A stretch of 1,773 nucleotides of DNA from Naegleria gruberi (GCA_000004985.1 GG739328.1), one strand, 5' to 3'. Counted from the first letter of the stretch, positions 23 to 1,750 are shown. The notes: generated by a model not told the origin, from the letters alone. Numbers and translations are program-made.

Positions 23-319
23 CTACATCTTTTTCGATTTGGTAATCCTCTTAGTAGTGGTGGTTGATTGTTTAGCTCTCTTTTCAATTGAATTTTTCGA
101 AGATCTTTTCACTGAAATTTGTTTACCATTTAAATTTGCATGATGATAATCAATATTATTACGATGTCTGGTTCCACTTATAATATTTGAAGTATCAATA
201 TCAAATAATGGTAATCTTTTAGTTAAATCAATTGGTTTAGATCTTGACCAGACTGTTTTTGTTGGAATTCTATCTTCGGAAGATGAAGAAGTATTTGAAG
301 AAGTATTTCTAGCTGGCAT
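23..319 (-). CDS. Complete small ORF, 98 aa. Hypothetical Ser/Thr/Asn-rich, Lys/Arg-rich protein: MPARNTSSNTSSSSEDRIPTKTVWSRSKPIDLTKRLPLFDIDTSNIISGTRHRNNIDYHHANLNGKQISVKRSSKNSIEKRAKQSTTTTKRITKSKKM. Function unknown.
   Basis: ATG at 319-317 in the context caaaATGcc, with A at -3 and an A-rich leader on the minus strand. TAG stop at 25-23. I walked the ORF codon by codon and it matches the supplied 98-aa translation. 297 nt without a stop is improbable by chance in DNA this AT-rich. An in-frame TAA 5 codons upstream of the ATG closes the frame, so this ATG is the likely start. No recognisable domain; the composition is low-complexity and basic, as in many small yeast nuclear or regulatory proteins. 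Confidence 0.55.
   Translation of the reverse strand: MPARNTSSNTSSSSEDRIPTKTVWSRSKPIDLTKRLPLFDIDTSNIISGTRHRNNIDYHHANLNGKQISVKRSSKNSIEKRAKQSTTTTKRITKSKKM
285..308 (-). repeat. Perfect 12-bp tandem duplication, gaagaagtattt x2 on the plus strand, in-frame within the 23-319 CDS. Encodes NTSS-NTSS (residues 5-12).
   Basis: 285-296 and 297-308 are identical 12-mers. The flanking 273-284 is a degenerate third copy (tcttcggaagat). The unit length is a multiple of 3, so copy-number change would keep the frame. Confidence 0.9.
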
Positions 320-341
320 TTTGATTAGTGTTTGTTATTTA

Positions 342-359
342 GTTATTTTGTTTTGTTGT
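342..359. repeat. Left arm of an 18-bp inverted repeat (17/18 match with 513-530), plus strand gttattttgttttgttgt. It lies 22 nt upstream of the minus-strand ATG.
   Basis: The reverse complement of 513-530 is gttattttcttttgttgt. This differs from 342-359 only at position 9 (c vs g). Confidence 0.8.
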
Positions 360-512
360 GGAAATATCATCATCCGATCAGTTATCTATTTATTTCCAAG
401 ATGATTTCCACTAATTTTGTGATTCCGATTTTTAGTGGATTTTCCACTCATCACAAGAATTTGAATTTTTCTATTACTAACATTTTGATGAAAGGAAATT
501 TAATGAAAATCA

Positions 513-530
513 ACAACAAAAGAAAATAAC
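513..530. repeat. Right arm of the same inverted repeat, plus strand acaacaaaagaaaataac. It lies 14 nt upstream of the plus-strand ATG at 545.
   Basis: See 342-359. On their coding strands both arms read acaacaaaa(c/g)aaaataac, followed by an A-rich spacer and then ATG. Confidence 0.8.
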
Positions 531-544
531 AAAACAATAAGAAG

Positions 545-658
545 ATGGTCTCAACAAGAAGAAATATGTATAATTCCTCCAATAATACTTCACAATTTAA
601 TTCCGAAATTTCTCTGGATAATATTGTTGGTGGAACAAGAAGAAGAAATGTTTTGTAG
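545..658 (+). CDS. Short ORF, 37 aa: MVSTRRNMYNSSNNTSQFNSEISLDNIVGGTRRRNVL, ending in a double stop TAG TAG. Probably a truncated or diverged paralog of the N-terminal half of the 23-319 product, so it could be a pseudogene fragment.
   Basis: ATG at 545 in the context aagaagATGg, with A at -3 and an A-rich leader containing the mirrored 18-mer. Residues 26-37 (NIVGGTRRRNVL) align to residues 45-56 of the minus ORF (NIISGTRHRNNI) with 8/12 identity. The two DNA stretches (620-655 vs 152-187 reverse-complemented) are about two-thirds identical. Both N-termini follow the same pattern: Met, basic residues, then N/S/T-rich. The ORF is too short to be convincing alone and was not on the supplied track. 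Confidence 0.3.
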   Translation: MVSTRRNMYNSSNNTSQFNSEISLDNIVGGTRRRNVL

Positions 659-884
659 TAGAACATTTTGCTCAAATATCAATCTTCTCAATCTTTGAAA
701 AGCAATATTGGACCTTTTCCATTTTGAATCATCGTTCCAAGTAACTAGTTGTTCTGCCATTTTTACAAAATCAATATGAACGTATCAAGCAAATAATCAA
801 CAGAGGAGAAACCTAATAACTTTTAATGAAAGAAAGTTTTGCATCAATTTACTGCCGTTACTAGTGTGGGGAGGAACATATTAT

Positions 885-1249
885 TTAAATTTCAATTGGT
901 AAATTAGACGGGAAGCCTGCCAGGAATATGGCGACTATCCCGCTACAGTCTTTGACTGTATGAACAGTGAAGGCAACGAATCTATTGATTGTTGGTTCAG
1001 TAAGTTTGTTATTTAGAAAAGCTTGCTACGTGACCATCTATATATCACCTTTGAATTTTATCTAGTTAGAAAGAGATACTTGTGGTTGATCAATAAAAGA
1101 TCAATTTTTGGATTTGAGACTTCAAATATTTGCTTCACCACATACCTAGCAAGTGTTAATTTCCATGACAAATGTCATATCTTTAGAACAACACTTGTCT
1201 AACCCCAATACTGCACTGAAGGTCCTTCGACAAATTGACTTACTTTCAT
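885..1249 (-). CDS. Candidate two-exon micro-gene on the minus strand. Exon 1 is 1249-1244 (ATG AAA). The intron is 1243-1026 (218 nt). Exon 2 is 1025-885 (46 codons plus TAA). The predicted 48-aa hydrophobic product is MKQAFLNNKLTEPTINRFVAFTVHTVKDCSGIVAIFLAGFPSNLPIEI.
   Basis: Minus strand reads gat gat aat ATG AAA then GTAAGTcaattt, a consensus fungal 5' splice site directly after the second codon, as in many yeast intron genes. TTCTAAC (reverse complement of plus 1063-1069) is one mismatch from TACTAAC and lies about 38 nt upstream of cacgTAG ending at 1026. Joining 1244 to 1025 is in phase 0 and opens a 46-codon stop-free frame, ending at TAA 887-885, across the G+C-rich island. Phe codons are TTC 4 to TTT 1. 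An in-frame TGA at 1300-1298 upstream makes 1249 the first ATG. Weaknesses: two closer AGs between branch and acceptor would be skipped; the product is tiny; the plus strand is also open here. Confidence 0.25.
1086..1104. repeat. Palindromic element TTGATC-aataaaa-GATCAA. It contains TGATCA and an AATAAA hexamer.
   Basis: 1086-1091 ttgatc and 1099-1104 gatcaa are reverse complements with a 7-nt A-rich spacer. It lies inside the proposed intron of the 885-1249 minus gene. It may be a protein-binding site, a weak hairpin, or chance. Confidence 0.5.
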
Positions 1250-1434
1250 ATTATCATCTTTATTCACCAAGAAAGCCAGACTGGTAACCTTATTCTTTCA
1301 AATATATTCTTGAATCTGTTATTGAATTTTTTCCCAATTTTTTAACCATAACTTTTCTTCATAACAATTTACACTTTCAGAACCAATATAACATCATTGA
1401 GGATGCAAGATTGATAAAACCATTGACTGTACTT

Positions 1435-1454
1435 CTACAGGATCTTTTCTGTAG
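1435..1454. repeat. Inverted repeat CTACAG-gatctttt-CTGTAG (6-bp arms, 8-nt spacer). It overlaps the stop codon of the 1599-1435 minus ORF.
   Basis: 1435-1440 ctacag and 1449-1454 ctgtag are exact reverse complements. A small hairpin could form at the ORF's 3' end. Confidence 0.6.
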
Positions 1455-1599
1455 GAATACATAAACTCGACTTTTTTGAGTCAATCTGACCTTTGAGGTT
1501 AACCAAGATGAAGACTCTGTAGTCACATATCTTGAGCATGATATCGAACTGGAAACATGCTTCGCTGTAGGTTTCCTCGTTCATAGATGATTGCTGCAT
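1435..1599 (-). CDS. Candidate small ORF, 54 aa: MQQSSMNEETYSEACFQFDIMLKICDYRVFILVNLKGQIDSKKSSLCIPTEKIL. Function unknown.
   Basis: ATG at 1599-1597 and TAG at 1437-1435, each codon checked by hand. It lies in the second G+C-richer island. Two-codon boxes strongly prefer the C-ending codon (AAC 2 vs AAT 0, TAC 2 vs TAT 0, TTC 3 vs TTT 0, ATC 3 vs ATT 2, GAC 2 vs GAT 1). AGA, TTG, GGT, GTT and AAG are also used, as in translationally selected yeast genes. A TAA two codons upstream closes the frame. The in-register antisense plus frame (1480-1587, no ATG) uses poorer codons. It is below the length cutoff of the supplied track. Confidence 0.33.
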   Translation of the reverse strand: MQQSSMNEETYSEACFQFDIMLKICDYRVFILVNLKGQIDSKKSSLCIPTEKIL

Positions 1600-1750
1600 T
1601 CCTTACCAGCCATGGTTTGTGAATGGGGGATTTGTGAACATGCAGATTGGTACCTTAAACTTTTTATCAATAATAGAAAATTATTACCCGAGCTGTATGT
1701 AGTTGTGTACTTAAGAAAATAGAATTATTAGTTTATTTCAGTGTGATGAA

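Follow-up and report, generated by a model that had tools for sequence, protein, structure and literature searches.

We analysed a 1,773-bp stretch of Naegleria gruberi DNA (AT-rich; GC content 26-39% across its length), referred to below as the window. Two small open reading frames lie head to head near its left end. One, on the minus strand, encodes 98 amino acids (23-319), and the other, on the plus strand, encodes 37 amino acids (545-658) and is ended by two stop codons, TAG TAG, at 656-661. Their ATGs are separated by an A/T-rich spacer of 225 bp (26-29% GC). This arrangement agrees with the original prediction for the locus. The features discussed here are the following.

23-319, minus strand: minus gene, intact, with an ATG start and a 98-aa product (ORF listing).
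137-199, minus strand: CHZ motif of the 98-aa protein, IDTSNIISGTRHRNNIDYHHA (aa 41-61; Pfam match).
320-544, no strand assigned: putative divergent promoter and 5' leaders between the two ATGs, with a core conserved in all six sequences of alignment A4.
342-359, minus strand: A/C-rich 5' leader element of the minus gene, mirroring 513-530 at 17/18 positions.
385-394, minus strand: invariant TCTATTTATT, candidate TATA-like element of the minus gene, about 66-75 nt 5' of its ATG (A4).
405-444, no strand assigned: conserved core TTTCCAC ... TGATTC ... GTGGATTTTC, candidate shared regulatory site (A4).
470-480, plus strand: TATTA-type element of the plus gene, about 70 nt 5' of its ATG (A4).
513-530, plus strand: A/C-rich 5' leader element of the plus gene, mirroring 342-359 at 17/18 positions.
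545-658, plus strand: truncated paralogue, with codons 1-35 of a gene that has 72 in relatives, then VL and two stops (ORF listing; match to protein P0007).
605-649, plus strand: N-terminal half of a CHZ motif, EISLDNIVGGTRRRN, without the I-(D/N)-Y end (Pfam, below cut-off).
649/650, plus strand: breakpoint, beyond which the window is no longer homologous to the intact orthologous loci L004 and L005 (blastn).

We found that the block common to the two ORFs belongs to a known motif. The block, GTRxRN, had been proposed as a motif of an uncharacterised family of small proteins. It is instead the core of the CHZ motif (Pfam PF09649, "histone chaperone domain CHZ"), whose founding member is yeast Chz1 (YER030W; PDB 2JSS and 6AE8), a chaperone of H2A.Z-H2B. 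The Pfam profile is 34 positions long and has a curated gathering cut-off of 23.3 bits. The 98-aa protein scored 25.6 bits (E 8.3e-6), above the cut-off, with residues 41-61 aligned to profile positions 9-31. The 37-aa ORF scored 18.2 bits (E 0.0017), below the cut-off, and covered profile positions 8-22 only; a version of it "repaired" for a frame shift did no better (18.5 bits). CHZ was the single Pfam family matched by both ORFs. An N. gruberi homologue of the 98-aa protein, P0004, scored 27.7 bits, and P0007, the intact relative of the plus ORF described below, scored just 11.3 bits. The motif in both genes is two residues shorter than the profile and has the GTRxRN form. Its conserved end (I/V, D/N, then Tyr) reads NIDY in the 98-aa protein and MINY in P0007. 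This end is absent from the 37-aa ORF, which reads NVL followed by the two stops.

A search of the PDB with a profile of the 98-aa family also led to Chz1. Three of the four matches were chains of the yeast protein, the best being 2jss_B. The E-values were weak (0.5-3) because the CHZ motif is short. In the 2jss_B alignment, LAEIDTSNIITSGRRTRGKVIDY of the window is paired with yeast LFDIDTSNIISGTRHRNNIDY, with IDTSNII...R.R..IDY as the common pattern.

The minus gene belongs to a Naegleria family. The closest named relatives of the 98-aa protein are two N. gruberi proteins, XP_002674900.1 (NAEGRDRAFT_69990) and XP_002668573.1, which are 88-90% identical to it and are its direct family; three metagenomic proteins are 68-90% identical. 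The family had been expected in fungal proteomes, and these matches place it in Heterolobosea. (Naegleria is a heterolobosean amoeba, not a fungus.) Both N. gruberi relatives also carry PF09649, and the databases annotate them as "predicted protein" and no more. The C-terminus of P0004 differs from that of the 98-aa protein, which ends in a lysine/arginine-rich tail (...TTTTKRITKSKKM). The 98-aa protein is strongly basic (pI 11.1; 21 K+R versus 7 D+E), and a complete CHZ motif is its sole recognisable feature. An AF2 model made from an alignment of only six close sequences had a mean pLDDT of 57.9, a pTM of 0.14 and no helix that exceeded 4 residues, and on this model the protein is probably disordered.

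We found that the plus ORF is the 5' part of a longer gene. Searched exhaustively with HMMER, 1.84 billion representatives contained one real relative of the 37-aa peptide, P0007 (E 5e-5), a 72-aa metagenomic protein with the sequence MVSTRTTIYNSSSSTNHQSEISIDNIIGGTRKRNMINYKTLNSNGNDNFTSTLKTSSKSHNTLEMRNRQFKF. The top HMMER match, a 689-aa repeat protein (P0006), was judged spurious; its best stretch is a frame-shifted-looking basic tail (KRTRRS...). A homology search started from P0007 returned P0007 alone. Residues 1-36 of P0007 matched window 545-655 with 62% identity (tblastn, E 3.7e-13). The start of the plus gene, ATGGTCTCAACAAGAA, is invariant in four related loci (L002-L005); over the ATG and first 11 codons, L002 is nearly identical to the window and L003-L005 are conserved, although the leaders diverge. 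P0007 runs past the position of the double stop to 72 aa, and the 72-codon gene of the relatives has the full CHZ core (IDNIIGGTRKRNMINY), Tyr included. Two readings of the plus ORF had been offered, a decaying copy and a short isoform sharing the N-terminal module. The missing second half of the motif, with its conserved Tyr, speaks against the short isoform, and the longer orthologue, to which homology stops at codon 35, supports decay.

The 3' limit of this homology was the same in both comparisons with intact loci. By blastn, window 63-649 aligned to L004 6-589 and window 405-649 aligned to L005, and both alignments ended at 649 (codon 35). The only intact orthologue comes from a fairly distant lineage, with about 72% DNA identity. 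Past 649, local and left-anchored global alignment found no significant colinear or local similarity to the orthologous loci, and the C-terminal half of P0007 had no significant match in the whole window (tblastn; best E 0.21). A frame-shifted 3' remnant at 650-790, suggested by MAFFT, was rejected: local alignment and global scores (z = 0.3-2.0) were no better than those of shuffles or other segments of the window. Two minus-strand ORFs that overlap this region (590-760, 56 aa; 451-675, 74 aa) had no Pfam match and no counterpart in L004 or L005, and we estimate that their lengths are within chance; we regard them as chance or antisense ORFs. Further along, a GC-richer stretch at 830-1010 gave folding z-scores of -1.4 and -2.2 and no Rfam match.

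Slow divergence does not account for the lost 3' half. A locus close to the window (L001; 91.6% identical over 24-493) and the distant L004 and L005 still share the 3' end of the plus gene, SKTSKSQSHNTLEMRNKQFK (score 54-69, compared with a shuffle maximum of 36). The end of homology at 649, together with the lack of a 3' match downstream, thus indicates that the 3' half was probably deleted or replaced at the locus in the window, or decayed rapidly there. Judged by its sequence, the plus ORF has the hallmarks of a truncated pseudogene, namely loss of coding sequence relative to an intact orthologue and a premature stop. The 37-aa copy is most likely a non-functional truncated paralogue, produced by deletion or rearrangement at about position 650, and its product, without half of the motif, would have lost its function.

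We compared the two ORFs with each other and found that their peptides match beyond chance. The 12-aa blocks, NIISGTRHRNNI and NIVGGTRRRNVL, are identical at 7/12 positions on recounting (8/12 had been reported). BLASTP of the 98-aa protein against the 37-aa peptide gave 8/15 identical residues over DIDTSNIISGTRHRN and EISLDNIVGGTRRRN (E 2e-4). When the 37-aa peptide was shuffled 5000 times, 0.04% of the shuffles reached its ungapped BLOSUM62 score of 45; with gapped scoring, 0.12% of shuffles were as good (p about 0.001). The 37-aa ORF matches the 98-aa protein better than any other open frame of the window, by a wide margin. With the same Pfam family found in both ORFs and the head-to-head order kept in L004 (below), the proposal that the ORFs are paralogues holds.

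Not every similarity put forward for the pair withstood shuffled controls. The DNA beneath the block (152-187, reverse-complemented, versus 620-655) is identical at 23/36 positions, so that the reported match is real, but the best 36-nt window between dinucleotide-shuffled ORFs reached 23 in 11% of trials (p about 0.11), and the match by itself is within chance. The N-termini (Met, basic, N/S/T-rich), also listed as a shared trait, were not significant alone (p = 0.12-0.20), and neither were the tails of the two proteins (p = 0.08). Comparison with the intact relative of the plus ORF gave stronger matches. The 98-aa protein matched P0007 over 50 aa (BLASTP E 1e-7; z = 8 against shuffles). At the DNA level, window 113-187 of the minus gene matched L004 635-560 (blastn, 72.7% over 77 nt, E 4.5e-4), and a second cross-paralogue match joined window 620-648 to L004 130-102 (86%).

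The spacer between the two ATGs contains a conserved core. We aligned the spacers of the window and the five related loci L001-L005 (alignment A4; six spacers). No conserved long ORF was present in 320-544. The columns at 405-410, 420-425 (TGATTC) and 435-444 (GTGGATTTTC) were invariant in A4, and the block was nearly invariant in a separate alignment, A1; the final C of TTTCCAC (C411; element 405-411) is T in L002. The core has inverted arms, TCCAC and GTGGA. On its minus-gene side lies the invariant candidate box at 385-394, and on its plus-gene side the element at 470-480, which is TATTAATATTT in L002-L005 and is altered to TATTACTAACA in the window, a form common to the window and L001. 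The altered box occurs in exactly the two loci with a broken plus gene. From its sequence, the spacer would fit a bidirectional promoter, with a central inverted-repeat site and two TATA-like boxes, each about 70 nt from an ATG.

The leaders of the two genes resemble each other in mirror orientation. The mirrored 18-mer of the original prediction (342-359 and 513-530) is present with 17/18 identities, and dinucleotide shuffling of the two leaders gave a match this good in 0-0.1% of cases (p at most 0.001). A repeat search extended the mirror to 31 nt at 84% identity (332-362 and 510-540). The leader mirror was beyond chance in the window and in L002, and not in L003 or L004. Across the whole spacer, mirror symmetry was weak (p = 0.01 in the window and 0.05-0.12 elsewhere; the L004 spacer was not significant).

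The head-to-head order is found outside the window. In L004, the gene for P0007 and a homologue of the 98-aa gene (MPARNSTTSSSDKIPTKTEWTRSKPID...) stand head to head, with a spacer of 237 bp between them. This order, together with the invariant start of the plus gene at the ends of contigs L002 and L003, indicates that the divergent pair is older than the separation of these lineages. In L004 and L005 the plus gene is intact and without an intron. L001 lacks the leader, the ATG and the CHZ half of the plus gene, and its remaining 3' end begins about 40 nt after the TATA-like element; L005 lacks about 80 nt, in which the minus gene would have its ATG and leader. The related loci come from metagenome contigs that are short and of low coverage, and these lesions could be assembly artefacts. 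Taken at face value, the lesions would point to a family of several copies, with decay open to either partner. We also scanned JGI metagenomes for more members. A pattern from the family alignment gave 298 matches, of which 0 were confirmed, and a DNA pattern of the promoter plus the start gave 0 matches.

Together, these results make it likely that the locus is a head-to-head pair of CHZ paralogues served by one divergent promoter, in which the minus gene is intact and the plus ORF is a truncated remnant. We weighed other accounts of the plus ORF against this one. It might be functional, as a half-CHZ micropeptide or a short isoform that the shared promoter drives and selection maintains. Conservation of the ATG and first 11 codons in L002-L005, despite diverged leaders, would agree with this, as would the intact promoter core and the still readable half-motif EISLDNIVGGTRRRN. 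However, a recent truncation would equally leave the 5' part conserved. Further, the ORF stops at profile position 22 of 34, short of the conserved Tyr, and its end coincides with the homology breakpoint, not with a conserved stop; no protein of such length or form was found among the 1.84 billion representatives; and the window shares its altered upstream TATA-like element with L001, where the plus gene is also broken. We therefore consider a functional 37-aa product unlikely. It is highly improbable that the rest of the plus gene is present but masked, whether by an intron that follows codon 35 or by an error made in sequencing or assembling the window. Introns do occur in Naegleria genes, GT dinucleotides are present at 650, 655 and 658, and a weak match to YKTLNSNGNDN (E 0.2-0.6) lies at 951-983, just before a GTAAGT at 1000. 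Against this, L004 and L005 carry orthologues without an intron, no GT site near 650 resembles GTAAGT or GTATGT, inspection by hand found no donor/acceptor pair that joins codon 35 in frame to 951-983, and the C-terminal half of P0007 has no significant match anywhere in the window. A single base error cannot give two consecutive stops plus a complete loss of similarity. An intron or a single error is thus unlikely, given intron-free orthologues, non-consensus GT sites and wholly lost similarity.

The remaining alternative concerns the pair itself. Two CHZ genes could have become neighbours by some route other than local inverted duplication, or the resemblance could be a chance or convergent match between basic, low-complexity peptides. 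Several results described above are in keeping with this: significant similarity between the ORFs is limited to the CHZ core of roughly 19 aa, the tails, the N-termini and the 36-nt DNA match are not significant alone, symmetry across the spacer is weak (p = 0.01-0.12), and L003 and L004 lack the leader mirror. Nevertheless, each ORF independently matches the same single Pfam family, and both have the two-residue shortening and the GTRxRN form, which set them apart from the profile and from yeast Chz1. The match of the 98-aa protein to P0007 (E 1e-7 over 50 aa) and the 77-nt cross-paralogue DNA match (E 4.5e-4) also argue against chance, head-to-head adjacency is kept across lineages, and local duplication is the simplest explanation of adjacent paralogues. 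We consider juxtaposition or chance quite improbable.

For this last reason, we prefer local inverted duplication as the origin of the pair. The old duplication that had been proposed is plausible, and only partly borne out. The arms are significantly similar in the CHZ core (as protein), in the 77-nt cross-locus DNA match and in the proximal leaders of the window and L002, but not in the N-termini, the tails or the 36-nt DNA, and only weakly across the spacer as a whole. Based on these results we suggest that an old, tandem-inverted pair of CHZ paralogues would have come to share one divergent promoter. The minus gene would have stayed intact, encoding a strongly basic, probably disordered CHZ protein. 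Its sister would have been cut at about 650 by deletion or rearrangement, leaving the plus ORF as a 5' remnant. The 98-aa product would bind or escort histone dimers through its CHZ motif, and the 37-aa product, with half of the motif gone, would most likely be inert.

The proposed activity of the 98-aa protein follows from what is known of the motif in other proteins. The CHZ motif lies on the surface formed by H2B alphaC and H2A alpha2, and human HIRIP3 without the motif loses H2A-H2B binding (PMC10854748); in yeast Chz1 the middle region, motif included, binds Z-B dimers (PMC6544321). Because the motif is required for binding of H2A(.Z)-H2B in both proteins, we infer by analogy that the 98-aa protein may bind H2A-H2B or H2A.Z-H2B dimers in a salt-sensitive manner, or escort them. 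The protein resembles S. cerevisiae Chz1 in its CHZ core (yeast IDTSNIITSGRRTRGKVIDY; window IDTSNIISGTRHRNNIDY), in its small size and in its predicted lack of structure, Chz1 being unstructured when unbound (PMC6544321). It differs from Chz1 in composition. The yeast protein owes its affinity and its preference for H2A.Z to both acidic and basic residues in a middle region of 61 aa plus an acidic DEF/Y motif, and in fungal Chz1 proteins the acidic flanks and this C-terminal motif (acidic residues, then Phe/Tyr) confer preference for H2A.Z (PMC6544321). In contrast, the window protein has a pI of 11.1, 7 D+E, a lysine/arginine-rich tail and neither acidic flanks nor DEF/Y. Its putative chaperone role thus rests on the motif of roughly 21 aa, and an H2A.Z specificity of the fungal Chz1 type is not expected. 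We file it as a CHZ-motif protein only, not as a Chz1 orthologue.

Non-fungal CHZ proteins are more similar in this respect. They bind both kinds of dimer, H2A-H2B and H2A.Z-H2B (PMC6544321). HIRIP3 and the plant proteins AtChz1 and OsChz1 have a CHZ motif that is indispensable for binding, without the fungal elements for H2A.Z specificity (PMC10854748, PMC6544321), and by this analogy they are most likely the functional counterparts of the Naegleria proteins. They differ from them in length, at hundreds of residues, and in having Glu-rich and poly-Ser stretches, compared with 72-98 aa and a basic composition in Naegleria; the minimal region of HIRIP3 with full affinity is 124 aa (PMC10854748). 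The arrangement of the genes can be compared with that of histone genes as well. Like divergent histone gene pairs, the locus has two small chromatin-related genes across about 230 bp, with a conserved centre and flanking TATA-like boxes. Histone gene pairs (H2A-H2B, H3-H4) are divergent and share a bidirectional promoter. Unlike them, the partners in the window are paralogues of each other, not two subunits of a dimer, one of them is broken, and their co-regulation is only putative.

With regard to the biology of Naegleria, these results assign a function-bearing motif, CHZ, which binds histone H2A/H2A.Z-H2B, to "predicted proteins", and they identify the 37-aa ORF as a gene fragment and not the founder of a new family of small proteins. 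The invariant promoter core (TTTCCAC and GTGGATTTTC) could serve studies of transcription in Heterolobosea. More tentatively, and with low confidence, we propose that the locus may belong to a lineage-specific, multi-copy cassette of the Naegleria type: two tiny, strongly basic, nearly bare CHZ proteins (72-98 aa), head to head on one promoter with a central inverted repeat, and subject to reciprocal decay. (It is the plus gene that is damaged in the window and L001; in L005 it is the minus gene.) CHZ peptides as small and basic as these could work unlike the acidic chaperones of the Chz1 type, for example as escorts or import adaptors of H2A-H2B, and they might be the smallest CHZ unit able to act by itself. 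Should the proteins of 72-98 aa bind histone dimers alone, they would be, to our knowledge, the smallest natural CHZ-motif proteins, and a handy minimal model of how the motif acts without acidic flanks.

We found that the closest relative of the window is a metagenome contig, L001, with 91.6% identity across window positions 24-493, and that its plus gene carries a different lesion. What L001 retains of the plus gene is its 3' end (…SKTSKSQSHNTLEMRNKQFK; positions 1-100, reverse complement), joined approximately 40 nt past the TATA-like box, and this copy is without the leader, the ATG and the CHZ half. The lesion in L001 differs from that in the window and is independent of it.

Decay in a second related contig, L005, is reciprocal to that in the window: the minus partner is damaged and the plus partner is whole. 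The minus-gene homologue at L005 1-130 is without its ATG and leader, with a gap of approximately 80 nt relative to the related contigs L003 and L004. The plus gene of L005 (P0007, a 72-aa orthologue with a complete CHZ core) is intact. The gap in the minus gene could also be an assembly artefact.

Within the family of the 98-aa minus-gene protein, the N. gruberi homologue XP_002674900.1 (P0004) diverges from all other members past ...SIEKRTK (aa 80-116) and has a hydrophobic tail at its C-terminus (…LLLFITEVALLCLRQ). This departure, together with the tail, suggests that the reference annotation contains a frameshift or an incorrect gene model. The minus gene in the window also contains an exact 12-nt tandem duplication (TGAAGAAGTATT twice, window 284-307), which codes for a repeated N-T-S-S in the Ser-rich N-terminus of the protein. 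The length of this repeat differs among homologues.

Two open reading frames lie antisense to the plus ORF:
590-760, minus strand, ORF of 56 aa
451-675, minus strand, ORF of 74 aa
Neither had a Pfam match or a counterpart on L004 or L005, and both are probably chance frames.

Downstream of the plus ORF, no reading frame in the approximately 700 bp at window 700-1420 exceeded 59 aa, and Rfam gave no match there. GC content climbs to 0.38 at 800-1000, and RNA folding of 830-1010 was unremarkable (z = -1.4 and -2.2). Two segments, 977-1036 (minus strand, with WSRSK) and 1068-1166 (plus strand, with ETSNI), weakly resembled the 98-aa protein by tblastn; neither resemblance was significant (E 0.12 for each).

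Window 1423-1651 (plus strand), approximately 770 nt downstream of the truncated plus ORF, encodes a full-length U3 small nucleolar RNA. The match to Rfam RF00012 scored 76.1 bits (cut-off 34; E 2.3e-16) and spanned model positions 1-219 of 219. On L004, the intact plus gene is followed approximately 150 nt downstream by a partial 5S rRNA match (852-912, minus strand; RF00001, 29.9 bits, E 0.0025); the alignment is incomplete as it is interrupted by the contig end. The U3 gene and the 5S rRNA match together suggest that the CHZ gene-pair cassettes are situated near small-RNA genes.

The spacer between the two genes contains an invariant promoter core. When the window was aligned with L001-L005, the elements conserved in all six (window 385-480) were TCTATTTATT, TTTCCAC, TGATTC, GTGGATTTTC and a TATTA-type box. 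Within this core, the sequences TCCAC and GTGGA are arranged as inverted arms. A further element, GTGGAAAT at 358-365, was common to the window and L001 only. The core may be a transcription-factor site within a bidirectional, heterolobosean promoter.
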